From Dehalococcoidia bacterium (GTDB lineage Bacteria; Chloroflexota; Dehalococcoidia; Bin125): DNA of 64,000 nucleotides. This document shows positions 3,675 through 59,440 of the stretch, in pieces. The translations under genes were made by a program, and so were the position numbers. Under the pieces are notes generated by a model. That model had not been told where the DNA came from. It saw nothing but the letters and a program-made list of their open reading frames with translations, and made no database searches. The DNA lies in NCBI GenBank assembly GCA_965218115.1, contig OZ244584.1:867835-931834 (forward strand), written 5' to 3'. Numbering within the stretch: the first letter of the stretch is position 1; each line of letters begins with the position of its first letter.

Positions 3675-4217
3675 ATGACCACGCTTCGAGCCATCGCCCT
3701 CATCGCGATCGCCGCGTTTGCGACGCTTGCGTGCGCCCCGGCGCCCACGCCCAGACCGCAGCTGGACCCTGGCGCGCCCGACCTCTCGGCGTTCCTCGAT
3801 CTCCCCGACGAGGTGGAGGCGGTGTCGTTTGACTGGACCTCGATGACGATGGTCACCGACGAAGCGGAGCTCGAACTCGGCGTCTTCATCGCCGACACCC
3901 CCGAGCGCCGAGGTCGCGGCTTGATGTACGCCAGCGGGCTGCCCCCCGCCAACGCGATGCTCTTCGTGTTCGAGGACCCACCCGTGCACTCGGGCTTCTG
4001 GAACGACAACGTGCCGATCGACCTGCACGTCGCGTTCCTCGACGCCGAGGGACGGATCATCGAGATACTCACGCTCGAGGCCCGGTCACGGGAGATCAGG
4101 CAGCCGCAGCAGCCGTACTCCTACGCCCTCGAGGTGCCCGCCGGACGCTTCGACGCACTCGGAATTGGGCTGGGAGATCGACTGATCGTCACACTCGAAA
4201 CCACGCAACAAAACTGA
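3675..4217 (+). CDS. DUF192-family secreted lipoprotein
   Basis: Signal peptide with lipobox (ATLAC). Central region resembles the DUF192/COG1430 pattern (FIADTPERRGRGLMYASGLPPANAMLFVFEDPPVHSGFWNDNVPIDLHVAFLDAEGRI). Confidence 0.6.
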   Translation: MTTLRAIALIAIAAFATLACAPAPTPRPQLDPGAPDLSAFLDLPDEVEAVSFDWTSMTMVTDEAELELGVFIADTPERRGRGLMYASGLPPANAMLFVFEDPPVHSGFWNDNVPIDLHVAFLDAEGRIIEILTLEARSREIRQPQQPYSYALEVPAGRFDALGIGLGDRLIVTLETTQQN

Positions 4218-4305
4218 CCCACGCAGCACTTGGCCCGTGCTAACCTGCTAGCAATTCTCACGTGCGCGCCGCTCGTGGCGGCGCCGTCAAGGAATGGACA
4301 GCCAG

Positions 4306-4404
4306 ATGAAGCGTATCGTTGGCATCGGAGCAATCTTGGCTCTCCTCGCGGCCGTCGCGCGCGTCGTCATGGGGCGCCGACGCGACGCCGAAGACGAGGC
4401 CTAG
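4306..4404 (+). CDS. possible small single-TM peptide (32 aa, MKRIVGIGAILALLAAVARVVMGRRRDAEDEA)
   Basis: ATG preceded by aaggaa RBS at -10; hydrophobic core then a basic/acidic tail. Below the ORF-track length cutoff, found by reading the intergenic region. Confidence 0.3.
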   Translation: MKRIVGIGAILALLAAVARVVMGRRRDAEDEA

Positions 4405-4530: not shown

Positions 4531-6000
4531 ATGAGCCGCGATCTCTATCTGGCCCTGGACTCGGGCACATCAAGCGTCCGTGCCCTCGCCTTCGACGCTC
4601 ACGGCCGGCTGCGCGGCCTCGCACAACGTGTGCTCGAGACGCGTCATCCCGAACCCGGTTGGGCCGAGCAGGACGCTGAACAACTCTGGTCGTCGCAGCT
4701 GCTCGCGGCCCGCGAAGTGGTCGCGACGGTTGGCGGTGCGGAACGCATCCGCGCGATTGCGATCGCCAATCAGCGCGAGACAGCGGTCATCTGGAATCGG
4801 CACACCCTGACCCCGATCGCACCCGCGATCGTCTGGCACTGCCGTCGCACGGCAGCGGCCGCTGCGGCGCTCGGACGTGCGCACGGCGACGAGATCCGAC
4901 GCCGCACCGGGCTGACGCCCGACGCCTACTTCTCGGGACCGAAGCTGGCCTGGATGCTCGATCACGGGTCCGGCGCGCGCGACCTCGCGTCGCAGGGCGA
5001 CCTCCTCGCCGGGACCGTCGATTCGTGGCTGATCGCTCGGCTCACCAACGGCCTGAGCCACCTGACCGATCGCACCAACGCCTCGCGCACGCTGATCTAC
5101 AACCTGTTGACCGACGCGTGGGACGCCGATCTCGCCGCGTGGAGCCGCGCGCCCCTCGCGATGCTCCCCGAGGTTCGCCCCAGCACCGGCGAATTCGCCA
5201 CCACCGCAGCCGAGCATCTCGGCGAGCCGCTGCCGATCCTCGCGGTCGCGGGCGACCAGCAGGCCGCGCTGTTCGGCCAGCACTGTGACGCGCCGGGGCC
5301 CGCCAAAGCGACCTACGGGACGGGCGCGTTCGTGCTCACGCGGGCGAGCGCCGGGCAGACGCCGCCCGCCGGCCTGCTGCTGACGGCGGCGGCGGACTCT
5401 CCCGCGGCGCTCGCGCTCGAGGGCGGCGTCTTCACCGCCGGGGCGCTGATCGACTGGCTGGTGTCGGAGCTGGGGCTCGCCGCCGACGGCGCGGAGCTCT
5501 CACGGCTGGCGAGCTCGGCCGCCGACAGCGGCGGAGTCGCCGTGCTGCCGGCGCTGGCCGGGATCGGGGCGCCGCATTGGGATTCGCAGCCACGCGGGAT
5601 GATCGCCGGGCTCTCCACCGGAACCACGCGGGCGCAGATCGCACGCGCCGCCCTCGAAGCGATCGCCTTCCGCGTGCGCGAGATCATCGAGGCGATGCCA
5701 ACCCCGATCGACGAGCTGCGGGTCGACGGCGGCCTGGCACACAGCGGCGCGCTCTTGCAGATTCAGGCGGATGCGCTCCAGCGACCCGTGCTGCGTCCGG
5801 GCAACCTCGAAACAACCGCCCTCGGCGCCGCGCGACTGGCGATCCGTGCGGACCTCGGCGATCCGCCCACGCACGAGCCCGACTACACGCGGATCGAGCC
5901 GCGCGCCGATCTCGACGCGGCCTATGAGCGCTGGCAAACGCTGCGCGCTGCCGCAGCGCAGATCCCGACATACACTGCCTCCGAGCGAGCAGGCGCATGA
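4531..6000 (+). CDS. glpK: glycerol kinase (FGGY family)
   Basis: LDSGTSSVRALAFD, HPEPGWAEQDAEQLW and AIANQRETAVIWNR...AIVWHCRRTA motifs. 3' end overlaps the glpD start by 4 nt. Confidence 0.85.
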   Translation: MSRDLYLALDSGTSSVRALAFDAHGRLRGLAQRVLETRHPEPGWAEQDAEQLWSSQLLAAREVVATVGGAERIRAIAIANQRETAVIWNRHTLTPIAPAIVWHCRRTAAAAAALGRAHGDEIRRRTGLTPDAYFSGPKLAWMLDHGSGARDLASQGDLLAGTVDSWLIARLTNGLSHLTDRTNASRTLIYNLLTDAWDADLAAWSRAPLAMLPEVRPSTGEFATTAAEHLGEPLPILAVAGDQQAALFGQHCDAPGPAKATYGTGAFVLTRASAGQTPPAGLLLTAAADSPAALALEGGVFTAGALIDWLVSELGLAADGAELSRLASSAADSGGVAVLPALAGIGAPHWDSQPRGMIAGLSTGTTRAQIARAALEAIAFRVREIIEAMPTPIDELRVDGGLAHSGALLQIQADALQRPVLRPGNLETTALGAARLAIRADLGDPPTHEPDYTRIEPRADLDAAYERWQTLRAAAAQIPTYTASERAGA

Positions 6001-7628
6001 CCCCTCAGTACGACGTGATCATCATCGGCGGCGGGATCAACGGGGCGGCGATCGCGTCCGCCGTGGGCGCGCGCGGCTATCGCACGCTCGTCCTCGAGCA
6101 GGGCGACTTCGCCTCCGGCACCACATCCGCCTCGACCAAGCTGATTCACGGCGGACTGCGCTACCTCGAGACGGGCGACGCCGGCCTGGTCCACGAGTCG
6201 CTGCAATCGCGCGAACGACTGCTGCGCGAGCGTCCCCACCTCGTGCAGCCACTGGGCTTTCTGCTCCCGGTCTACCGCGGCGACCCACGCCCGGCAGCGG
6301 TGATTCGCTCCGGACTGCTGCTCTACGACCTGCTCTCCCCGCGCAAGGTCACGCCCTGGCACCGCTCGTTCTCGACCCGCCAGCTGCAGCGCCGCGAGCC
6401 GTCGCTCTCGACCGACGGGCTCGACGCGGCGTACCTCTTCTACGACGCCCAGGTCACGATGCCCGAGCGCCTGACCCTGGAATATCTGGCCGAGGCACGA
6501 AGCTCGGGCGCCGACCTGCGCAACTACTCGGCGGTCGACTTCATCATCGTCGACCGCGGCCGCGCGCGCGGCGTCGACTTCCACGACGTGCTGACCGGGC
6601 GACGCTCCTCGGCCGCCGCGCGGCTGGTCATCAACGCCGCCGGACCGTGGGTCGACGCGGTGCTCGAAGCGACCGGCAAGACGCTCGAGCGACGCGTCGG
6701 GGGCACGCGCGGATCACATCTGGTGCTCAACCTGGAGCGTCGCGGACCGCGCAACGCGGTGCTGCTCTCGGCTCGCTCCGATGGGCGCCCGGTCTTCGTG
6801 GTGCCCTGGCTCGAGCACCACATCATCGGCACCACCGATGTGCATGATCCCGGTGACCCGACGAACACCCGCACGCATTCCTGGGAGATCGATTACCTGA
6901 TCGCCGAGGCGTCGCGAGCGCTCCCGGGCATCGGCATCGAGCGGCGCAACGTGCTCTACGCATACTCAGGCGTTCGCCCGCTTCCACTCGTCTCGGGCCA
7001 CGCCTCGGAGGCTGCGATTACGCGTCGCTCGTTTGTGATCGATCATCAGGCCGAAGGCGTGGGACGGATGGTCTCGATCGTTGGCGGCAAGCTCACCACC
7101 GCGCGCAACCTCGCCGATCACGTCGCCCGGCACGTCGGGGCGGTGATCGGAAGGCCCCGCGCCCGCGGCATCCGGGCGTTGCCGGCTGTGCCGCAGGCAC
7201 GCACCACCTTCCTGCCCGCGCACACCCAGGAGCACCTGCGCGCAACCTACGGTCCGCGCGCGCCCGAGGTGGCGGCGTATACGGCGACGGACCCCGCGCT
7301 GGCCCAACCACTCTCGCCGCACCACACCGACATCGGCGCACAGGTCGCGTTCGCCGTCGATCGCGAAGGCGCGCGAACCGTCGCCGATGTGCTGCTGCGC
7401 CGCACGGCGGTCGGCCTGACGCGTGATCTCGGGCGCGCGGCCGCGCCGCGGACCGCACACATCATGCAACCGCGGATGGGCTGGTCGGACGATCAGACCC
7501 GCCAGGCCGGGCGCGACTATCTCGTCGAACTGCATCGGCGCTTCACCATCTTCGACCCGCAGACCGGCGCGCCCGCCCCCGAGCCGGCCGTCGCCCCGCG
7601 CGACCCAGCCCGCCGGGACGCCTTCTAG
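5997..7628 (+). CDS. glpD: FAD-dependent glycerol-3-phosphate dehydrogenase
   Basis: N-terminal YDVIIIGGGINGAAIA FAD fold; length 543 aa; operonic with glpK. Confidence 0.85.
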   Translation: MTPQYDVIIIGGGINGAAIASAVGARGYRTLVLEQGDFASGTTSASTKLIHGGLRYLETGDAGLVHESLQSRERLLRERPHLVQPLGFLLPVYRGDPRPAAVIRSGLLLYDLLSPRKVTPWHRSFSTRQLQRREPSLSTDGLDAAYLFYDAQVTMPERLTLEYLAEARSSGADLRNYSAVDFIIVDRGRARGVDFHDVLTGRRSSAAARLVINAAGPWVDAVLEATGKTLERRVGGTRGSHLVLNLERRGPRNAVLLSARSDGRPVFVVPWLEHHIIGTTDVHDPGDPTNTRTHSWEIDYLIAEASRALPGIGIERRNVLYAYSGVRPLPLVSGHASEAAITRRSFVIDHQAEGVGRMVSIVGGKLTTARNLADHVARHVGAVIGRPRARGIRALPAVPQARTTFLPAHTQEHLRATYGPRAPEVAAYTATDPALAQPLSPHHTDIGAQVAFAVDREGARTVADVLLRRTAVGLTRDLGRAAAPRTAHIMQPRMGWSDDQTRQAGRDYLVELHRRFTIFDPQTGAPAPEPAVAPRDPARRDAF

Positions 7629-7650
7629 GGAAGCTCTGAATCACTCTCGC

Positions 7651-7770
7651 CCCCGCTGACCACATTGAGTGGTCAGCGGAATCTGGATCCGGATCGGATT
7701 CCGTCGAGCACTCAATGTGCTCAACGGGGGGGAGATGTCACGGAGTGACAGAGGGGGGCTCCCCACGCCC
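7651..7770. repeat. cluster of hairpin repeat modules (two copies of module D in opposite orientation, plus module C)
   Basis: CCGCTGACCACATTGAGTGGTCAGCGG and CCGTCGAGCACTCAATGTGCTCAACGG are each perfect 11-bp-stem/5-nt-loop palindromes; GGGGGGAGATGTCACGGAGTGACAGAGGGGGGCTCC recurs elsewhere. Sits between convergent glpD and copA. Confidence 0.85.
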
Positions 7771-7791
7771 GCCCGGGCGTCCCCAGTCGGA

Positions 7792-10062
7792 TCAGGCCTG
7801 TCGCGCGTCGGGCCGCCAGCGTTGCAGCCGAAGGGCATTGGTCAGGACGCTGAGGCTGGAGAGCATCATCGCCCCCGCCGCCACGATCGGCTCGAACGTG
7901 CCTTGCTCGCCGAACACCCACTCGAGGCCGCCCGGCACTCCGCCGACGGCGCTGAAGATCGGCCAGCCGATGCCCGCCGCCAGCGGGATCAGCAGGATGT
8001 TGTAGCCGAAGGCGAAGCCAAGATTCTGGCCGATCGTCCGCCGCGTCGCGCGCGCCAGCGCGAGCGCCGCCGCCACGATCCGCGGGTCGTCGCGCATCAG
8101 CGTCGCGTCGGCCGCATCGACGGCGATGTCGGCGCCGCTGCGGAGCGCCATGCCGAGGTCGGCCTGGGCAAGCGCCGGCGCGTCGTTGACACCATCCCCC
8201 ACCATCGCCACGATCTCCCCCTGGGCCTGAAGACCGGCCACGATTCCGGCCTTCTCCTCGGGCAGCGCCTCCGAAACGATCTCGCTGACCCCGACTCGGT
8301 CACCGACCGACCACGCGACCGCGTCGGAGTCGCCCGTGACGAGCAGCACGCGTAGGCCCGCGCGACGCAGCTGCGAGACGGCTTCCGCCGCCCCCGGCTT
8401 CAGCTCATCCGCCGTCCAAATCACACCCGCCGGCGTCCCGTCGACGGCGACCAACACGCCGGTCGCCGCCTCGCCCTGACCCGTCGGCTGGTCCGCTTCG
8501 ATGCCAAGCTCGCGCATCAGGCGATGGTTGCCCACCGCGACCTCGCGCGAGCCGACGCGGCCCACTGCCCCACGGCCGGGCATCGCGCGAAACTCCTCGA
8601 TCCGCGCGATTTCTACCCCGAGTTCGCGCGCGTGATCGAGGACGGCGGCCGCCAACGGATGTTCCGAGGCCGCCTCGACCGCCGCAGCCAGCGCGAGCAG
8701 TTCGCGCTCGTTCCCGCTCTGCGCCTCAACCGAGACCACGCGGTGACGGCCCGTGGTCAGCGTCCCCGTCTTGTCGAAGACCACCACGCTGACCCGTGCG
8801 GCTCGCTCAAGCGCCTCGGCGTCGCGGAAGAGCACGCCCGTCGATGCGGCGCGCCCTGCGCCGGCGGCGATCGCCGCGGGCGTGGCGAGCCCGAGTGCGC
8901 AGGGACAGGCGACGACAAGCACCGCCACCGCTGTCAGTAATCCGAGCGTCCAGGCGGGCTCGGGGCCGAGCGCCGCCCACAGCGCGAAGGCCAGGACCGC
9001 CAACCCGATCACGGCTGGAACGAACACCGACGCGATCCGGTCCGCCAGCCGCTGGATCGGCGCCTTCGACGCCTGGGCCCGTTCAACCGCCGCCGCGACC
9101 CGCGCGAGGGCCGTGCCGGCGCCGACCTGGCGCGCCTCGTAACGCAGCAGCCCGTCGCGATTGATCGCGCCCGCGAACACCAGGTCGCCGACATCCTTTG
9201 TGACCACCGCGCTCTCCCCGGTCAGCAGCGCTTCGTCGACCGACGAGACGCCGGCGACGACCACTCCATCGACGGCGAATTGTTCGCCCGGCCGCACCAC
9301 GAGTTCGTCGCCGACGATCACGTCGTCGACATCGAGCTCCAGTTCCTCCCCGCCGCGAATGACGCGAGCTGTCGGTGGCCGCAGGCCAAGCAGGTTGGCG
9401 ACGGCGGATGCGGTGCGCCGCTTGACGCGTGTCTCCAGCCAGCGCCCCAGGGTCACGAATCCGACGATGATCAGCGCGGTATCGAAGAACACGTCGCGCG
9501 ACGCGCCGGCCGCCTCGAACGCGCCACCGGCGAACGTCGCGGCTGCGCTGTAGGCCCAGGCGGCGGTCACCCCGAGCACGATCAGGGTGTCCATGTTTGC
9601 CCCGTCGCGCAGCCGCAGGCCCTGCATCGCGATTGGCCCTGCGACCACGATCAGCGCCGGCGTGGCCACGATGAACAGCGCGATGAAGAGCACGTCGCGA
9701 TCCCAGCCCAGCTCCGCCCAGCGATTGACCTGCATCGCCACGAACATGCCCCAGCCGAGCGCCAACGCGCCGCCCGACCGCCAGGCCTGGGCGAGGTCGC
9801 CGCCCTCGGCCGCTGACCGCTCGCCGGCGCCGAGCTGGTAGCCCGCGGACTCGATCGCGGCGGCGAACTCTTCACGGTCCGGCGATTCGCCGTCGATGTC
9901 GAGGATCGCCCGGCCGGTCAGGAAGTCCGCGCTGGCCGCGCTGACGCCGTCGACGCGCACGAGCGCGCGCTCGACGCGCCGCACACAGGCGGCGCAGTGC
10001 ATCCCTTCGACGGCCAGCACCGTCTGGGCCGCGCCCTGAGTCGGTGATTTCGAGACGCTCAT
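7792..10062 (-). CDS. copA: heavy-metal (Cu+) translocating P-type ATPase
   Basis: N-terminal HMA domain GMHCAACVRRVE, CPC ion-transduction motif (VVACPCALGLATP), DKTGTLT phosphorylation site, GDGVNDAPAL hinge. Confidence 0.9.
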   Translation of the reverse strand: MSVSKSPTQGAAQTVLAVEGMHCAACVRRVERALVRVDGVSAASADFLTGRAILDIDGESPDREEFAAAIESAGYQLGAGERSAAEGGDLAQAWRSGGALALGWGMFVAMQVNRWAELGWDRDVLFIALFIVATPALIVVAGPIAMQGLRLRDGANMDTLIVLGVTAAWAYSAAATFAGGAFEAAGASRDVFFDTALIIVGFVTLGRWLETRVKRRTASAVANLLGLRPPTARVIRGGEELELDVDDVIVGDELVVRPGEQFAVDGVVVAGVSSVDEALLTGESAVVTKDVGDLVFAGAINRDGLLRYEARQVGAGTALARVAAAVERAQASKAPIQRLADRIASVFVPAVIGLAVLAFALWAALGPEPAWTLGLLTAVAVLVVACPCALGLATPAAIAAGAGRAASTGVLFRDAEALERAARVSVVVFDKTGTLTTGRHRVVSVEAQSGNERELLALAAAVEAASEHPLAAAVLDHARELGVEIARIEEFRAMPGRGAVGRVGSREVAVGNHRLMRELGIEADQPTGQGEAATGVLVAVDGTPAGVIWTADELKPGAAEAVSQLRRAGLRVLLVTGDSDAVAWSVGDRVGVSEIVSEALPEEKAGIVAGLQAQGEIVAMVGDGVNDAPALAQADLGMALRSGADIAVDAADATLMRDDPRIVAAALALARATRRTIGQNLGFAFGYNILLIPLAAGIGWPIFSAVGGVPGGLEWVFGEQGTFEPIVAAGAMMLSSLSVLTNALRLQRWRPDARQA

Positions 10063-54539: not shown

Positions 54540-54878
54540 ATGGCTGACGCGAATCTGCAGGACCACGACGAGACGAAGCGGGTCGAGATGTTCGAGGGCG
54601 TGACGATGCGCACGCTGAACCACGGCGAGCACACCTCGATCCACGAAATCGAGATCGCGCAAGGCGGCGTGGTGCCGATGCACACCCATCCGCACGAACA
54701 GATCGGCTACCTGGTCAGCGGCCGGGTGCTGTTCGAGCTCGGTGAGCTGAAGCGCGAAATCTCGGCCGGCGACTCCTGGATCATCCCCTCCGAGGTCCCC
54801 CACGAGGTCACCGCGCTCGAGGATTCGGTCGCGCTCGATATCTTCTCGCCCAAGCGCGACGAGTACATCAACCGATGA
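54540..54878 (+). CDS. cupin domain protein
   Basis: Two His-containing cupin motifs (HTHPHEQ ... PHEV). 3' end overlaps the purB start. Confidence 0.7.
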   Translation: MADANLQDHDETKRVEMFEGVTMRTLNHGEHTSIHEIEIAQGGVVPMHTHPHEQIGYLVSGRVLFELGELKREISAGDSWIIPSEVPHEVTALEDSVALDIFSPKRDEYINR

Positions 54879-56539
54879 TCCCCCGCTACCAACGCCCCGA
54901 GATGGCGGCGCTCTGGACCGACGACGCCAAGTGGCGCCGCTGGCTCAATGTGGAGATCGCGGTCGTGCAGGCCTGGGCCGACGAGGGCGTCGTGCCCCGC
55001 GAGGACGCCGAAAAGATCGCCGCGAACGCCAGCTTCGTGACGGCCGACATCGACCGCTACCAGATCAAGGTGCACCACGACACGCACGCGTTCCTGCAGT
55101 CGGTCGGCGACAGCCTCGGCCCGGAGTCGCGCTGGGTGCATCACGGCCTGACCACCAACGACGTCTGGGACACGGCCTCGGCGCTACAGATTCGCGATGC
55201 GGCCGAGCTGCTGGAGCAGAATCTCGAGCGTCTCGAAGGGGTGCTGACGCGCCGGGCCAACGAACACCGCCACACGGTCTGCGCCGGGCGGACGCACGGA
55301 ATCCACGCGGAGCCGACGACGTTCGGTCTCAAACTGCTGTCCTGGGTCGACGAAGTCCGGCGCAACCGCGTCCGCCTGGCCGACGCCAAGTGCGGCATCG
55401 CAGTGGGCAAGATCTCCGGCGCGGTGGGGACGCACGCGACCGTACCGCCGTGGGTCGAAGACCGCGTCTGCGCCGAACTCGGCCTCGGCGTTGAAGCGGT
55501 GTCCACGCAGGTGGTGCAGCGCGACCGTCACGCGCATTTCGTCTCGACGCTGGCGCTGGTCGCAGCATCGCTGGAGCGCTTCGCCACGGAGATTCGCCAC
55601 CTCCAGCGCACCGAGGTGCGCGAGGTGCAGGAGCCGTTCGTGGAGGGCCAGGCCGGCTCGTCGGCGATGCCGCACAAGCGCAACCCCGAGAAGTGCGAGC
55701 GGGTCTGCGGGCTCGCCCGCACGATCCGCGCAAACGCGATGACGGCGCTCGAAAACGTGGCGCTATGGCACGAGCGCGATATCTCGCACTCGAGCGCCGA
55801 GCGCATCCTGATCCCCGACGCCTGCCAGGCGCTCGACTACATCCTCGACCTCTTCACCTGGGTCATGGACGGCCTGATCGTGGACGCCGACCGGATGCTG
55901 CAAAATCTCGGCGGCTCCCACGGCCTGGTCTTCTCCCAGCGCGTCCTGCTGGCGCTGACCGAGGCGGGCATGGGTCGCGACGAAGCCTTCCGCCGCGTGC
56001 AAACCCACGCCCTCGCCGCGTGGGACGAACAATCCGACTTCCGCGCCCGCCTCGAGGCCGATGAGACGATCACCTCCGTGCTGGATAGGTCGGCGCTGGA
56101 TGGACTGTTCGACCCGGCGGCGTTCCTGATACACGTCGACGTATCCTTCAGGCGAATCATCGAGCATGAAATAGTCTCGCTAGTACGCGCCTTCCTGGCC
56201 GAGCGAGGAGTTTCAGCGGAATCCGAGCACCTTGAACGGGGCGTCGGACCGGACTTCTTCGTGCAGCATGACGGAGTATCGGTAGCACTCCAGATCAAGG
56301 GCAGTTCCCCCCCTGATGAACGCGCGATTCAGCAGATGGACGCGATCATCCGACGCGACCCCGCCACCATCGTCTTTGCCGTCTCCTACGAGACTCCACC
56401 AAGCGGAACCTGGCGCGACTCAGAGACGCTCCGCTGGACAACGCGGATGTCGAGCGGCGATCCCGCCGCCGCGTGGTCGCGCGGAACGGCGGCGCAACTG
56501 GCTGACGCCGTGTTTCGTGCGGTGACCGACGGCGTCTAA
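54875..56539 (+). CDS. purB: adenylosuccinate lyase with a ~130-aa C-terminal extension of unknown function
   Basis: MIPRYQRPEMAALW start and the fumarase/ASL signature GSSAMPHKRNP. The ORF continues ~130 codons beyond where PurB normally ends (~430 aa). Confidence 0.8.
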   Translation: MIPRYQRPEMAALWTDDAKWRRWLNVEIAVVQAWADEGVVPREDAEKIAANASFVTADIDRYQIKVHHDTHAFLQSVGDSLGPESRWVHHGLTTNDVWDTASALQIRDAAELLEQNLERLEGVLTRRANEHRHTVCAGRTHGIHAEPTTFGLKLLSWVDEVRRNRVRLADAKCGIAVGKISGAVGTHATVPPWVEDRVCAELGLGVEAVSTQVVQRDRHAHFVSTLALVAASLERFATEIRHLQRTEVREVQEPFVEGQAGSSAMPHKRNPEKCERVCGLARTIRANAMTALENVALWHERDISHSSAERILIPDACQALDYILDLFTWVMDGLIVDADRMLQNLGGSHGLVFSQRVLLALTEAGMGRDEAFRRVQTHALAAWDEQSDFRARLEADETITSVLDRSALDGLFDPAAFLIHVDVSFRRIIEHEIVSLVRAFLAERGVSAESEHLERGVGPDFFVQHDGVSVALQIKGSSPPDERAIQQMDAIIRRDPATIVFAVSYETPPSGTWRDSETLRWTTRMSSGDPAAAWSRGTAAQLADAVFRAVTDGV

Positions 56540-56867
56540 GACACCAGCGATGCGTTGACGAGGCCTGCACGCGCACCATGTGACCCCACGCTCTCTAGCG
56601 CGCAGCCAACGGGACGATCACTTCGGCCACGCGAACTGGCCATCGCCCAGCCCTGCGCAGCGCAACAAGTGTCGACGGCCGCCGTGCTGGACACAGCTGA
56701 AAGACCCGCCCCTCAACCTCGCGTACAGGGGCAGCACGAGACTTGGGAAGCTCCCAAAAACTCTCCCCCCGCTTCGCGTTGGCAGAGTCATTCAGAGCCG
56801 TCCTGAGAGTGCCGCGCACTGAGCGCCCGTGCGACGCATGGGACTTGACGTCCTGGGCGGATCAGCC

Positions 56868-57792
56868 TCTAATCAGAACATGCATGCACACGCGGCAATC
56901 GGCAGGTCCGATCAGCCCACTCGTCAAAGCCCTGAACTGCCCGTCGCGGAGCTCCAGACCCACGATCATGACCGATCAAACCGATCAGGGCTGAACGAAA
57001 CCGATCGATTCCGATCACCCCTACCAGATAGGACAGGCGCTCGAATCGAGTCAGAATCGAAAAATCCCCCAAAAACCGATCACTCCCATGCAGCCAGCTC
57101 CAACCGCCCTCTTCACGCCCTCCATCCAGCAGGGAGTCGAGACCTTCCGACTCCCCGATATTGCTGAGCACCCTGAGGTGACGGAACGAGTTCGCCGAGC
57201 TGCATTCACGCTGGCTGCGAGCCGTTGTAATTTTGCCTGGCATGAAACGAGGGACCGCGATGCGCGTGATGCTGGAGTCTGACCTCGCGGCGCCGCTGCA
57301 ACGCGGCAACCTCACCAGGCAGCCGACTTGACATCCCGAGCGATCCCGTCTCTAATCAGAACATGCATGCGCATGCCGCGATCCCCAGATCCGATCACCC
57401 CACTCGTCGCAGCCCTGAACTGCCTGTCGCCGAACTCCTGACCCACAATCAGGACCGATCAAACCGATCAGGGCTGAACGAAACCGATCGATTCCGATCA
57501 CCTGACCAGATAGGACAGGCGCTCAAAATCGAAGCGAAATCGAAAAATCCCCAAAAACCGATCACTCCCATGCAGCCAGCCCCAACCACCCTCTTCCCGC
57601 CCGCCATCCGGCAGGCAGTCGAGACCTGCCGACTCCCCGACACGGCTGAGCACGCTGAGCTAACGGAACGAGTTCGCGGAGCTGCATTCACGCTGCCTGC
57701 GAGCCGTTGTAATTTTGATTGGCGTGAAACGAGGGACCGAGATGACCGTGATGCTGGAATCTGACCTCGCGGCGCCGCTGCGGCGCGGCAAG
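56868..57792. repeat. tandem duplication (period 482 bp) of the purC leader plus the first ~17 codons of purC
   Basis: Copy 1 is 56868-57310, copy 2 is 57351-57792. Both begin TCTAATCAGAACATGCATGC and end in ATG(C/A)(G/C)CGTGATGCTGGA(G/A)TCTGACCTCGCGGCGCCGCTGC. Confidence 0.9.
57260..57331 (+). pseudogene. purC 5' fragment (MRVMLESDLAAPLQRGNLTRQPT*) created by the leader duplication
   Basis: Aligns codon-for-codon with the purC start at 57742, then diverges into a stop. Confidence 0.8.
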
Positions 57793-58650
57793 GTGCGGGA
57801 TATCTATGACCTTGGCGAACAACTGCTGATCGTGACCACCGACCGCGTGTCGGCGTTCGACGTGGTGCTGCCGACCGGCATCCCTCAGAAGGGCTGCGTG
57901 CTCACCCAGATGTCGGCCTACTGGTTCGAGGCGACCTCCTCGGTCGTGCCCAACCACATGATCCGGGTGATCGACTCGACCGACAATCCCGACCTGCCGC
58001 TGCAGTTGGGCCCCGAATACGTGGGCCGCTCGATGCTGGTGCGCAAGGCCGAGCCGGTCAAGCTCGAGGCGGTCGTGCGCGGCTACCTGGCCGGCAGCGG
58101 TTGGGCCGAGTACCAGCAGAACTCGCGGGTCTGCGGGATTCCCCTGCCCCCCGGGTTGCGCGAGTCCGACGCGCTGCCCCAGGCCATCTTCACACCCTCG
58201 ACCAAGGCCGATGTCGGCCACGACGAGAACATCACCTACCAGCAGGCCGTCGAAATCGTCGGCGAAGACGTGGCCAACACGGTCAAGGTGCGCTCGATGG
58301 CGCTCTATCTGTTCGGGCTCGAGCGCGCGCGCCAGGCCGGCTTCATGCTCGCCGACACCAAGTTCGAGTTCGGCGTGACCAAGAACGAGCAGGGCGAGGA
58401 CGAGGTGATCCTGATCGACGAGGCGCTCACGCCCGACTCGTCGCGCTACTGGGATGCGAGCGTCTACAAGCCGGGCCAGTCGCAGCCCTCCTTCGACAAG
58501 CAACCGCTGCGCGACTGGCTGACATCCACCGGCTGGAACAAGGAGCCGCCCGGCCCGCCGATCTCCGACGAGGTCGCGGCCGTGCTCACCGAGCGCTACC
58601 GCGCCGCGTTCGAGCGCGTCACAGGCCGCGAGCTGTTGGTCGGCGCTTAG
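57742..58650 (+). CDS. purC: phosphoribosylaminoimidazole-succinocarboxamide synthase (SAICAR synthetase)
   Basis: GKVRDIYDL, LLIVTTDRVSAFDV and LADTKFEFG motifs. Start at ATG 57742. Confidence 0.9.
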   Translation: MTVMLESDLAAPLRRGKVRDIYDLGEQLLIVTTDRVSAFDVVLPTGIPQKGCVLTQMSAYWFEATSSVVPNHMIRVIDSTDNPDLPLQLGPEYVGRSMLVRKAEPVKLEAVVRGYLAGSGWAEYQQNSRVCGIPLPPGLRESDALPQAIFTPSTKADVGHDENITYQQAVEIVGEDVANTVKVRSMALYLFGLERARQAGFMLADTKFEFGVTKNEQGEDEVILIDEALTPDSSRYWDASVYKPGQSQPSFDKQPLRDWLTSTGWNKEPPGPPISDEVAAVLTERYRAAFERVTGRELLVGA

Positions 58651-58940
58651 TGGCCGAGAGCAGGTCCTTCAAGGCGGACATCTACGTCACCCTCAAGCGG
58701 ACGGTCAACGATCCGCAAGGCCTGACGATCCGCGGCGGCCTCCACGCCCTCGGCTTCGAGGCAGTCTCGGCGGTCCGCGCCGGCAAGTTCATCGAGGTCT
58801 GGCTCGAAGCCGCCGACGACGCCGAAGCCCAGCGCCAGGTCGAGCAGATGAGCGATCAGCTCCTGGCCAATCCCGTCATCGAGGATTTCCGCGTCGAACT
58901 CACCTCCGGCGGCGAGCCGGCGCCAGGAGTCGAGGACTGA
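58650..58940 (+). CDS. purS: phosphoribosylformylglycinamidine synthase subunit PurS
   Basis: KADIYVTLKRTVNDPQG...LLANPVIEDFRVEL. GTG start overlapping the purC stop (TAGTG). Confidence 0.8.
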   Translation: MAESRSFKADIYVTLKRTVNDPQGLTIRGGLHALGFEAVSAVRAGKFIEVWLEAADDAEAQRQVEQMSDQLLANPVIEDFRVELTSGGEPAPGVED

Positions 58941-59440
58941 GCGCTTCCATCTCTCCCCCCGCGGGGGGGAGATGTCACGGAGTGACAGAGGGGGGCCTCC
59001 CGCCAGCCTCGTGCCACCAGCGCTTCCATTTCTCCCCCCGCGGGGGGGAGATGTCACGGAGTGACAAAGGGGGGCCTCCCGCTCGGCGGCGAGCCGGCGT
59101 CGGGGGTCGCGGACTCAGCGCTTCCATTTCTCCCCCCGCGGGGGGGAGATGCCGCAGGCAGAGGGGGGCCTCCCACCCGCCTCGTGCGACCTGCGCCCCC
59201 TCCGTCATTCCTGCGCCCCCTCCGTCATTCCTGCGCAGGCAGGAATCCATGCGACCGACCAACCCTGCGACGAGCCTCCATCCGCCCGACGGCCCACCAA
59301 AGCCCCCAGCGCACCGCGCGTGATCGAACCCCGTCGAACATTGGGAGTGCCCTTGACCCCACAGACCGCCTGGATTCCTGCCTCCGCAGGAATGACGAAA
59401 CCAGCAGCTCCCGAGCTAACGCGAACGTCTGCGCGGAGCT
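58941..59440. repeat. repeat cluster: three direct ~62-bp module-C units (one carrying a duplicated purS 3' end) followed by MITE-like element A (~59205-59400)
   Basis: AGCGCTTCCAT(C/T)TCTCCCCCCGCGGGGGGGAGATG... occurs at 58941, 59029 and 59117. The 59082-59148 stretch repeats the last ~12 purS codons. Convergent junction with hisB. Confidence 0.85.

Follow-up and report, generated by a model that had tools for sequence, protein, structure and literature searches.

The window, a stretch of 64,000 nucleotides from a Dehalococcoidia bacterium, carries a fused purB gene on its forward strand. The open reading frame (54875..56539, + strand) encodes 554 residues. Residues 1-427 (54875..56155) form a complete adenylosuccinate lyase, as supported by Pfam, TIGR00928 and dN/dS, while residues 428-554 (56156..56536) form a C-terminal tail of 127 residues, as supported by HMMER, tblastn, AF2 and Foldseek; the tail stop codon occupies 56537-56539. 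An earlier, sequence-only reading had noted that the frame runs through all 554 residues with neither stop nor frameshift, and both the ORF list and the translation of the interval agree. Its estimate of about 130-135 residues for the extension was slightly too long: the in-frame extension is real, but the Pfam and TIGR00928 matches end at residue 427, so that the extension has 127 residues. The gene belongs to a purine operon with the order guaA-purD-cupin-purB-...-purC-purS, which is found in the window and in loci L001-L004, L007-L009 and L090 of its relatives. The next operon gene, purC (57715..58650, + strand), encodes SAICAR synthase, as identified from the ORF list and Pfam SAICAR_synt.

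The PurB part and the fusion junction

The PurB part is of the Bacillus/Thermotoga type (about 430 residues; TIGR00928), which it resembles in its conserved residues over the full length of 1-427 and in its place in a purine operon. In the fusion protein, Pfam Lyase_1 covers residues 7-284 and ADSL_C residues 350-427, and NCBIfam TIGR00928 (purB) scores 490 bits against a cut-off of 326.2, with residues 1-427 on model positions 1-434 of 436. The fumarate-lyase signature loop, GSSAMPHKRNP, is intact. Its residues S262, S263, M265, P266, H267 and N270, together with H68 and H141, are invariant in an alignment of 56 PurB sequences, and K268 of the same loop is nearly so. The window protein differs from the canonical type in that it adds a separate C-terminal domain and in that the canonical G-L-stop is replaced.

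The fusion junction, R426-R427-I428-I429 (56150..56161, + strand), is defined by DNA and protein alignments. When the tail-bearing DNA of the window, L003, L004 and L001 is aligned with that of L002, which has no tail, homology to the tail-less allele stops just after F425, at nucleotide 56149. The start of the extension had been placed at 56160, which is nearly right; since homology ends after F425, the true junction lies 5-10 nucleotides upstream. At the junction, the ancestral PurB end, F-A-R-L-G-L-stop, has been replaced, with the last two to three codons and the stop gone. A single unbroken helix, residues 421-443, crosses from PurB into the tail.

The extension had also been described as lower in GC, and this holds. 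In 150-nucleotide windows, GC is 0.57-0.59 at 56075-56300 and about 0.69 within purB. The tail as a whole has a GC of 0.638 and a GC3 of 0.709, compared with 0.685 and 0.897 for the PurB part; the median GC3 of the ORFs in the window is 0.85, and GC3 across tails is 0.65-0.71.

Fold and source of the tail

The AF2 model of the tail, built from an alignment of 15 sequences only, has a pLDDT of 83.9 and a pTM of 0.82. Its topology is α-β-β-β-α-β, with helices at model residues 3-21 and 58-72 and strands at 39-43, 46-54 and 76-83 among its elements. All of the top 35 PDB matches found by Foldseek are PD-(D/E)xK nucleases; among the top 35 viral matches most are unnamed, and the named ones are again PD-(D/E)xK nucleases. 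The matches include Hjc, RecU/PrfA, the SPARDA nuclease and the R2 endonuclease, with the Holliday-junction resolvases Hjc and RecU the best (Foldseek E 2e-4, probability 1.0). The tail is thus predicted, with good confidence, to adopt the PD-(D/E)xK restriction-endonuclease-like fold. The tail has no significant match to any curated family in Pfam at E<=10, NCBIfam or PADLOC, and a PDB sequence-profile search gave nothing below E=0.3, where AF1548 at E=1.2 is suggestive at most. A match to NRBF2 at E=0.057 was dismissed as noise.

The motif of the tail is E430...D460...Q473-x-K475. E430 (56162..56164, + strand) is located in helix 1 and is invariant throughout the alignment, in its three tails and in every family member (the family is described below). 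D460 (56252..56254, + strand), the "PD" aspartate with which strand 2 begins, is invariant in both the tails and the family, while Q473-I-K475 (56291..56299, + strand) takes the "(D/E)xK" position on strand 3. In hhalign, D460 and Q473-x-K475 fall on D42 and E55-M-K57 of Hjc. The arrangement GPDFF-x11-ALQIK picked out in the sequence-only reading is therefore present, as D460, Q473 and K475, and its speculative assignment to a PD-(D/E)xK core with Q at the acidic position is supported by the fold, by hhalign and by two orthologues that have E at 473. At residue 473, the window and L004 have Q, while L003 (E-F-K) and L001 (E-L-K) have E. E430, D460 and K475 are invariant among the tails, two of which retain the full E-D-ExK set.

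The tail and the known nucleases have common features, but each comparison also reveals differences. Hjc (PDB 1hh1, 4tkd, 1ob8, 2eo0) and RecU/PrfA have the same α-β-β-β-α-β core, and in Hjc the D and (E/Q)xK residues lie on the same strands, 2 and 3, with the 13-residue spacing of D42 and E55. However, the TM-score to Hjc and RecU is only 0.45-0.50 at 12-16% sequence identity, the tail has no Pfam match, and the catalytic E of Hjc is a Q in the window tail. Hjc is also free-standing and very basic (pI 10; 9.99 for Sso Hjc), whereas the tail is found solely fused to PurB and is acidic (pI 4.94 in the window, with 12 K+R against 18 D+E; 4.9-5.8 across tails). The Mrr-type D-(Q/E)xK nucleases resemble the window tail in having Q at the second acidic position. 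Since natural D-QxK nucleases such as Mrr have been reported, Q473 alone is no proof of inactivity. In the tail lineage, however, residue 473 switches between E and Q from one close allele to another, a pattern that resembles drift and not a family signature, and the Mrr_cat Pfam profile does not match the tail even at E<=10.

The only sequence relatives of the tail are the N-terminal 125 or so residues of one family, found by exhaustive HMMER searching of 1.84 billion representative proteins; in a word-indexed protein search the tail by itself returned nothing. The exhaustive search gave 13 matches, with E from 3e-9 to 6e-4. The best phmmer match in this library (E=3.3e-9) places tail residues 12-121 on family residues 15-124, and tblastn gives E=8e-13. 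Homology begins at about family residue 5 and ends at the domain boundary of the family, about residue 125; 56192-56521 is the only part of the window that matches. Identity is 28-39% over the whole domain, and the core residues common to tail and family are E, D, G, A-x4-DA, FAxxY, LxWxxR and WxxGxxxLA. The family N-domain has a GC3 of 0.76 +/- 0.09, and the tail is nearer to this value than to that of the host genes (0.85-0.90).

A census of GTDB species-representative genomes of Dehalococcoidia/Chloroflexota confirmed 85 matches to the family, of which 80 loci were kept. An intact member has 919 residues, with PADLOC matches to MTase_II and REase_MTase_IIG and the methyltransferase motifs DPACGTG and NPPF; in the intact member at L010, N6_Mtase scores 30.5 bits against a gathering score of 20.4. 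Judged by these profiles and motifs, this uncharacterised family, which is restricted to Dehalococcoidia/Chloroflexota, is a putative type IIG-like restriction-methyltransferase. It has the layout of the MmeI-size enzymes of type IIG/IIL: an N-domain, then a helical region, a gamma-type N6-adenine methyltransferase and a C-terminal region, the N-terminal endonuclease domain being the counterpart of the tail. It is not a member of Pfam MmeI_N. In the window only the nuclease-type domain is kept, without the methyltransferase or recognition parts, and the family has E-A-E (ExE) where the tails have ExK or QxK. Many members are split in protein catalogues, and two relics are cut short, L011 directly after the QLAxAV helix, where it adjoins an IS transposase, and L046 at about residue 185. 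A 357-residue NucS-like neighbour in L010 was considered as a conserved partner; it is present in one of the 80 loci and therefore is not one.

Distribution and evolution of the tail

The in-frame fusion is also present in three other independent metagenome assemblies, P0001/L003, P0002/L001 and P0007/L004, the only ones with the tail among the best 120 PurB relatives listed. Tail identity to the window is 72% in L003, 69% in L004 and about 48-50% in L001. In P0007/L004, a contig of 9x coverage, there is a frameshift inside purB and the tail stop has been lost. PurBs 93-96% identical to that of the window end at 430 residues with the ancestral ...SFARLGL stop and have no tail; all of the more distant PurBs have the same ...SFARLGL end. 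Both PurB sub-clades contain the tail, and both likewise contain tail-less alleles. The tail is a presence/absence polymorphism among close relatives. On whether orthologues share the architecture with a recognisable known domain, a point raised in the sequence-only reading, the answer is divided. Three relatives share the full 554-residue architecture, which is therefore neither a one-off nor a sequencing error, but the added part matches no curated family, and other relatives, 93-96% identical in PurB, are without it. Nothing relevant on a C-terminal extension of PurB, or on its fusion to a nuclease, came up in a search of the literature.

The tail is under weak purifying selection that is relaxed relative to PurB, with dN/dS of 0.46-0.66 compared with 0.09-0.15 for the PurB part. 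Between the tails of the window and L003, substitutions fall at 19, 21 and 22 sites in the three codon positions, a pattern indistinguishable from neutral (p=0.2). Tails separated by deeper splits have a modest deficit of amino-acid changes, 66 against 76.6 expected (p=0.003) and 62 against 76.2 (p=0.0002), and the odds of remaining stop-free under neutrality are 0.05-0.07 in these deep comparisons. The tails of the window, L001 and L003 are of equal length and have no indels, despite a nucleotide divergence of 35% between L001 and either the window or L003. Positions conserved in the family are preferentially kept among the tails (odds ratio 2.3, p=0.028). The tail dS, 0.64-0.86, is similar to that of purB, and the tail is older than the divergence of two PurB clades whose proteins share 88% identity.

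Between purB and purC lies a hypervariable spacer, a hot spot for insertions in this lineage. It is empty in L009, where purC starts 57 nucleotides after purB, and it holds different ORFan cargo in L002, L007, L008 and L090. The cargo ORFs of L002, L007, L090 and L003 are unrelated to the tail or to known families; Pfam domains occur in one cargo protein only, the M9-peptidase-like protein of L008. The neighbourhood 3' of the tail differs in every tail-bearing locus, and no conserved partner gene was found. In the window, a non-coding 3' flank (56540..56790, + strand; blastn, MAFFT) has been inherited with the tail: L003 and L004 match it at 84-85% identity, and L001 can be aligned to it only in part. 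An "AAQQ..LDTA" resemblance seen by eye in this flank was not supported by tblastn, which also gave no credible remnant of the rest of the methyltransferase gene, either 3' of the tail or elsewhere in the 64 kb. Farther downstream lies the upstream copy (56842..57324, + strand) of a tandem duplication, detected by blastn of the region against itself. Its unit of about 483 nucleotides consists of the purC leader and the first 77 or so nucleotides of purC and is 87.6% identical to 57325-57791. The purC leader/promoter region itself (57325..57714, + strand; about 390 nucleotides), which borders the variable spacer, is conserved at 89-93% identity in L001, L002, L003, L004, L007, L008 and L090, with no Rfam family and no covariation support in RNAalifold.

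Origin and meaning of the fusion

The fusion of PurB and tail is a new domain architecture. The profile match and the conservation of the PurB part favour a gene that encodes a functional adenylosuccinate lyase. The donor of its tail would be the N-terminal PD-(D/E)xK domain of the roughly 919-residue type IIG-like family that is widespread in Dehalococcoidia. In the order of events proposed here, the donor gene, or a fragment of it, would have landed in the purB-purC spacer. A small deletion would then have joined purB in frame to about codon 3-5 of the incoming gene, so that the last two to three codons of PurB and its stop were replaced by the first 125 or so donor codons, and everything past the nuclease-domain boundary would have been lost. 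As it stands now, the final PurB helix continues without a break into helix 1 of the tail. The outline offered by the sequence-only reading, a fusion with foreign DNA or loss of the purB stop, stands in that the tail corresponds to family residues ~5-125 and the PurB stop is replaced; its suggestion of a small downstream gene as the source does not, the source probably being the 5' portion of a gene with about 919 codons.

Once captured, the tail would have stayed on as a folded appendage, with weak purifying selection acting on it, probably because an essential tetrameric enzyme would suffer from a tail that misfolds. In the window, Q in place of the metal-binding E, the acidity of the domain and the missing methyltransferase and target-recognition modules point away from an active targeted nuclease. 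Direct evidence supports the fusion, the fold, the homology, the polymorphism and the relaxed selection, while the order of events and the absence of function are inferred. The reading preferred here, with reasonable though not high confidence, is that of a captured relic nuclease domain, kept foldable on a functional PurB, and the tail is probably a catalytically dead passenger. The lack of indels, the stop-free frame and the conserved motif amount to more order than a relic needs, so that the tail may have some function, either in binding or, in the alleles bearing E, as a nuclease.

A stronger form of this idea, in which the PurB homotetramer is a scaffold that pairs Hjc-like domains and couples nuclease activity or nucleic-acid binding to purine synthesis, is possible but unlikely; its roles could lie in defence, in repair or in feedback on the conserved leader of purC. 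Nucleases of the Hjc type work as dimers, and the rigid helix at the junction would suit such an arrangement. The persistence of the tail since before the split of the two PurB clades, with a dS close to that of purB, the intact length, the low chance of a stop-free frame and the significant deficit of amino-acid changes all argue in its favour, as do the invariant E430, D460 and K475 and the full ExK of L001 and L003, which bring the tails closer to the canonical ExK than the ExE of their source family. However, a functional domain would be expected to have a lower dN/dS than the tail, and the pair formed by the window and L003 looks neutral. Two of the four alleles have E473Q, basic residues are very few at a pI of 4.9-5.8, and no PADLOC or Pfam family matches the domain. 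The tail is also dispensable, because PurBs 93-96% identical to that of the window are without it, and the downstream genes, which differ at each locus, include no conserved partner. It is more doubtful still that the tail is a domesticated nuclease or nucleic-acid-binding module on the PurB scaffold, working as a purine-coupled defence or repair nuclease or as an autoregulator through the purC leader, with E or Q at 473 an old polymorphism between cutting and binding-only forms.

Two other explanations concern the origin of the architecture rather than its use. If the tail were an ancestral regulatory or oligomerisation domain of PurB, lost repeatedly and borrowed by the type IIG-like family, its presence in both sub-clades and a divergence similar to the synonymous divergence of purB would be expected. 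This is very improbable. Tail-less alleles have the same ...SFARLGL stop as distant PurBs, which simple deletion of a tail cannot regenerate; the N-domain occurs in 80 family loci of GTDB species representatives against four assemblies with the PurB fusion; and the tail GC3 fits the family N-domain and not the host genes. An artefact of assembly or sequencing, in which a missed stop or an indel merges purB with a small downstream gene, is essentially refuted. The related contigs are long-read metagenome assemblies that do contain frameshifts, as in the purB of L004 and in the frame-shifted PurBs P0004 and P0012, and the splitting of many family members in catalogues tells a similar story. Nevertheless, the same frame stays open across the junction in all four independent assemblies, although their sequences there clearly differ, and the junction has no homopolymer. 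None of the frames of the window junction contains the ancestral ARLGL-stop end, family homology starts in the purB frame immediately past it, and the translation of the window has no in-frame start codon at the start of the tail domain that could serve a separate gene.

Should capture of a relic domain be the correct reading, the locus would be a dated, well-documented case of the welding of a decaying restriction-modification gene fragment onto an essential housekeeping enzyme. The fragment would have long persisted as a passenger that is still able to fold, present in some alleles and absent from others at a hot spot of recombination and insertion, and it would help in thinking about how new domain architectures begin. 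Annotation pipelines would label the fusion protein a plain adenylosuccinate lyase, which is a warning. The work also reveals an uncharacterised, MmeI-sized restriction-methyltransferase family, with 80 loci, for whose nuclease-type domain, at the N-terminus, Pfam has no model. A functional tail would, unexpectedly, tie purine synthesis physically to the cleavage or binding of nucleic acids.

The C-terminal extension of PurB and its relatives

The purB reading frame (54875..56539, + strand) runs for 554 codons without interruption. Lyase_1 and ADSL_C of Pfam cover residues 7-284 and 350-427, and residues 1-427 match the purB equivalog TIGR00928 of NCBIfam end to end (490 bits, against a cut-off of 326); by sequence, this part is an ordinary member of that family. 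The remaining 127 residues, the tail (aa 428-554, nt 56156-56536, + strand), have no match in Pfam, NCBIfam or PADLOC. The in-frame extension described in the sequence-only reading is thus real, since the frame is open to its end and TIGR00928 stops at residue 427, but it begins a few bases 5′ of position 56160, where that reading had placed it. Its lower GC is also borne out. In 150-nt windows, GC dips to 0.57-0.59 at 56075-56300, compared to about 0.69 inside purB, and the tail has a GC3 of 0.71, against 0.90 for the PurB part and a median of 0.85 over the window ORFs.

When the whole 554-aa protein was used as query, the same tail turned up in three further proteins, each in a different assembly: P0001 (locus L003; 554 aa, 90% identical overall), P0002 (L001; 554 aa, 79% identical, on a 3.2-Mb contig labelled circular) and P0007 (L004; N-terminally cut by a frameshift, on a 9x contig). 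These are the only tail-bearers among the 120 best PurB relatives listed. In NCBI/ENA the exact window protein itself is found on a 3.15-Mb contig. The same in-frame read-through occurs in four assemblies even though their junction DNA sequences differ at many positions, and all four continue across the junction in the purB frame, which all but rules out an assembly artefact. No in-frame ATG, GTG or TTG is found at the start of the tail in the window sequence, so the domain can be produced only as a fusion. A literature search found no published report of a PurB-nuclease fusion, and the protein is a new domain architecture built from known kinds.

Several related contigs have frameshifts inside purB (L004 at about 5970-6000; 3′ parts in P0004/L007 and P0012/L008). 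These contigs have 7-9x coverage where stated, and the frameshifts are probably assembly errors. Protein lengths from such catalogues should be checked against the DNA before they are interpreted biologically.

Family and fold of the tail

Searched exhaustively with HMMER, a library of 1.84 billion representative proteins gave 13 matches to the tail, with E from 3e-9 to 6e-4. In 12 of them the tail aligns to the first 125 or so residues of the protein, or to a copy of that domain shortened at its N-terminus; in the other, P0131 (1513 aa), only a short internal stretch matches (tail residues 72-106 on 731-765). A profile search widened the set to 175 proteins without any Pfam N-terminal domain. 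The longest members listed in catalogues have 440-490 residues and end near an NPPF motif; around a DPACGTG motif they weakly resemble N6_Mtase, MmeI_Mtase and BREX-PglX. Genomes assembled to chromosome level have the gene as a single ORF of 919 codons (L010, 3959-6715) with N6_Mtase above the Pfam gathering threshold and MTase_II and REase_MTase_IIG matches in PADLOC. The full-length ORF and the methyltransferase matches give this family the size and layout of type IIG/IIL (MmeI-like) restriction-modification enzymes: an N-terminal nuclease-type domain with a D...ExE motif and no Pfam model, a helical region, a gamma-type N6-adenine methyltransferase and a C-terminal region. By this likeness it is an uncharacterised, putative restriction-modification enzyme.

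A scan of GTDB species representatives found 80 family loci, all in Dehalococcoidia/Chloroflexota, about three quarters of them intact in a single frame; some genomes have two copies. Many catalogue entries are split near NPPF, just past a proline-rich PPPP(M/I)DL stretch, either by assembly frameshifts or by real decay; L005 (8001-10766) and L006 (8001-10710) have split members. Although the tail is homologous to the N-terminal domain of this family, it lacks the methyltransferase that defines it: in the whole 64-kb window only 56192-56521 matches the family, and no remnant of the methyltransferase part is present. Next to the intact gene of L010 lies a 357-aa protein (7044-8117) with a match to PDC-S11, a candidate defence family of PADLOC (E=4e-15), and with a NucS/PD-(D/E)xK-like motif (ADILAV...IIEVK). 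As a conserved neighbour of the family it was rejected, being found in one of the 80 loci.

The AlphaFold2 model of the tail, built from an alignment of 15 sequences (three tails and 12 family N-domains), has a pLDDT of 83.9 and a pTM of 0.82, with its elements in the order helix, three strands, helix, three strands, helix. The best Foldseek matches in the PDB (E from 2e-4, TM 0.45-0.50) are Sulfolobus Hjc (4tkd, 1ob8, 1hh1) and ST1444, RecU/PrfA, the SPARDA nuclease domain and the R2 restriction-like endonuclease, and the named matches in a viral library are Holliday-junction resolvases, RecU, VRR-NUC and restriction endonucleases; every one of these has the PD-(D/E)xK fold. When the tail profile is aligned to Sso Hjc with hhalign, D460 falls on D42 and Q473-I-K475 on E55-M-K57. 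The Q473 tripeptide is E-F-K in L003, E-L-K in L001, Q-F-K in L004 and E-A-E in the restriction-methyltransferase family; E430 in helix 1, D460 and K475 are invariant among the tails. The fold matches, the Hjc alignment and the E-x-K of two orthologous tails support the earlier, speculative suggestion of a PD-(D/E)xK core with glutamine at the acidic position. The tail is predicted to have this fold, yet no curated sequence family includes it. Unlike Hjc (pI 10), the tails are acidic (pI 4.9-5.8, 12-13 K+R) and are not free-standing, and for this reason the domain is not classed as Hjc or RecU.

The purB-purC spacer and the inferred origin of the fusion

The gene order guaA-ORF146-purD-cupin-purB-[X]-purC-purS is conserved, and X differs in almost every genome; the spacer is a hypervariable site for insertions. 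In L009 it is empty (6294-6350, 57 nt); it holds a 262-aa ORFan in L090 (6294-7402), three ORFans in L002 (7294-9866), two minus-strand ORFs in L007 (6363-8958) and an M9-peptidase-like (M9-collagenase-like) gene with a CarboxypepD_reg domain in L008 (6411-8842). The tail lies at this site in the window (spacer 56540-57714), L003, L004 and L001.

A non-coding element, some 390 nt long, lies directly 5′ of purC (57325-57714), with a second copy at 56842-57232; it is 89-93% identical at the same place in L001, L002, L003, L004, L007, L008 and L090 and absent from L009. The purB coding DNA of L001 matches the window at only 85% identity, so conservation is higher in the element than in coding sequence. 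It starts with a promoter-like TTGACA-N17-TCTAAT motif, followed by a leader of about 340 nt with five CCGATCA repeats. It has no Rfam match, and its 10 near-identical copies give no covariation support; it is a candidate for an uncharacterised leader or regulator of purC. Together with the first 77 nt or so of purC it forms a unit of about 483 nt, tandemly duplicated at 56842-57324 and 57325-57807 (87.6% identity) and in L004, and single in the other relatives. Further downstream, 3′ of the purS-like ORF, three tandem copies of an 80-98-nt repeat (58907-59181), each containing the palindrome TCTCCCCCCGCGGGGGGGAGA, are followed by more repeats to 59400, including a perfect 20-nt tandem repeat (59190-59229) and a 31-nt inverted repeat (59223-59253 / 59367-59397). 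The array resembles a REP/MITE-like element.

In both sub-clades of the PurB tree, alleles with the tail are interspersed with alleles that lack it, and 430-aa tail-less members occur within the window protein's own 90%-identity cluster. In all pairs, the last 140 nt or so of the PurB part are 79-85% identical, against 95-97% just 5′. The L001 purB is a mosaic relative to the window, with 97% identity in the first 300 nt, 75-89% in nt 300-1140 and 68% in the last 138 nt of the PurB part; its cupin (5666-6004) and purB start (6000-6300) are 96-97% identical to window 54540-55174. This mosaic indicates recombination between otherwise diverged lineages. The pattern points to old, distinct 3′-end haplotypes that would have been moved among related genomes by homologous recombination. 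Between the window and L001, the tail has diverged at synonymous sites (0.64-0.86) about as far as purB, so the fusion is older than the split of the two sub-clades.

Tail-less PurBs, including P0003, P0005, P0244 and P0245 (PurB part 93-96% identical) and all more distant ones, end in ...D-A-S-F-A-R-L-G-L-stop, where tail-bearing PurBs read ...S-F-R-R-(I/L)-(I/T)-E-H-E.... DNA similarity to the tail-less allele ends past F425, and homology to the family runs from about family residue 5 to the first domain boundary, past the QLAxAV helix. In the simplest history, a family member or fragment would have come to lie directly 3′ of purB, a short deletion would have taken the last codons and stop of purB with the first few codons of the newcomer, and the remainder of that gene would have been lost. 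A very small deletion could suffice, since genes of this operon overlap by 4 nt (cupin stop and purB start, ATGA at 54875). Some family copies are truncated beside IS elements; that of L011 (about 3959-4330) ends right past the same QLAxAV helix with an IS transposase nearby, and that of L046 (3959-4675) is cut at about aa 185. The composition of the tails (GC 0.61-0.64, GC3 0.65-0.71) is nearer to that of the family N-domain in its usual hosts (GC 0.65 +/- 0.04, GC3 0.76 +/- 0.09) than to that of the window genes.

Selection on the tail and its role

NG86 estimates of dN/dS are 0.09-0.15 for PurB and 0.46-0.66 for the tail. In a permutation test, in which the observed substitutions are reassigned among sites with the same base, the tail shows fewer amino-acid changes than the neutral expectation between the window and L001 (66 vs 76.6, p=0.003) and between L003 and L001 (62 vs 76.2, p=0.0002), and no significant deficit between the window and L003 (37 vs 40.2, p=0.2), a pair whose differences split 19/21/22 by codon position. 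The chance of remaining stop-free is 0.19 for window-L003 and 0.05-0.07 in the two deep comparisons. The tail is free of indels in all three 554-aa proteins; its non-coding 3′ flank has them in the deep comparison only. Columns conserved in the family are preferentially kept among tails (odds ratio 2.3, p=0.028). Together these tests indicate weak purifying selection, which would hold the fold and lies far below what a demanding function would be expected to impose.

The tail could be a functional nuclease or binding module that uses the PurB tetramer as a scaffold, as the invariance of E, D and K, an ExK that is intact in two alleles, the lack of indels and the age of the fusion might suggest; this main alternative is considered unlikely. 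In the full-length AF2 model (pLDDT 86.4) one continuous helix, 421-443, crosses the junction and attaches the tail rigidly to the C-terminal domain of PurB. The tail is acidic and comes without the methyltransferase and recognition modules by which DNA is normally brought to a nuclease domain of this kind, and in the window its second acidic residue is a glutamine. These features argue for a passenger. It is rather likely that the gene encodes a normal adenylosuccinate lyase to which a folded passenger domain, probably dead as a nuclease, is attached, and that the residual selection on the tail acts mainly against misfolding of an essential tetrameric enzyme.
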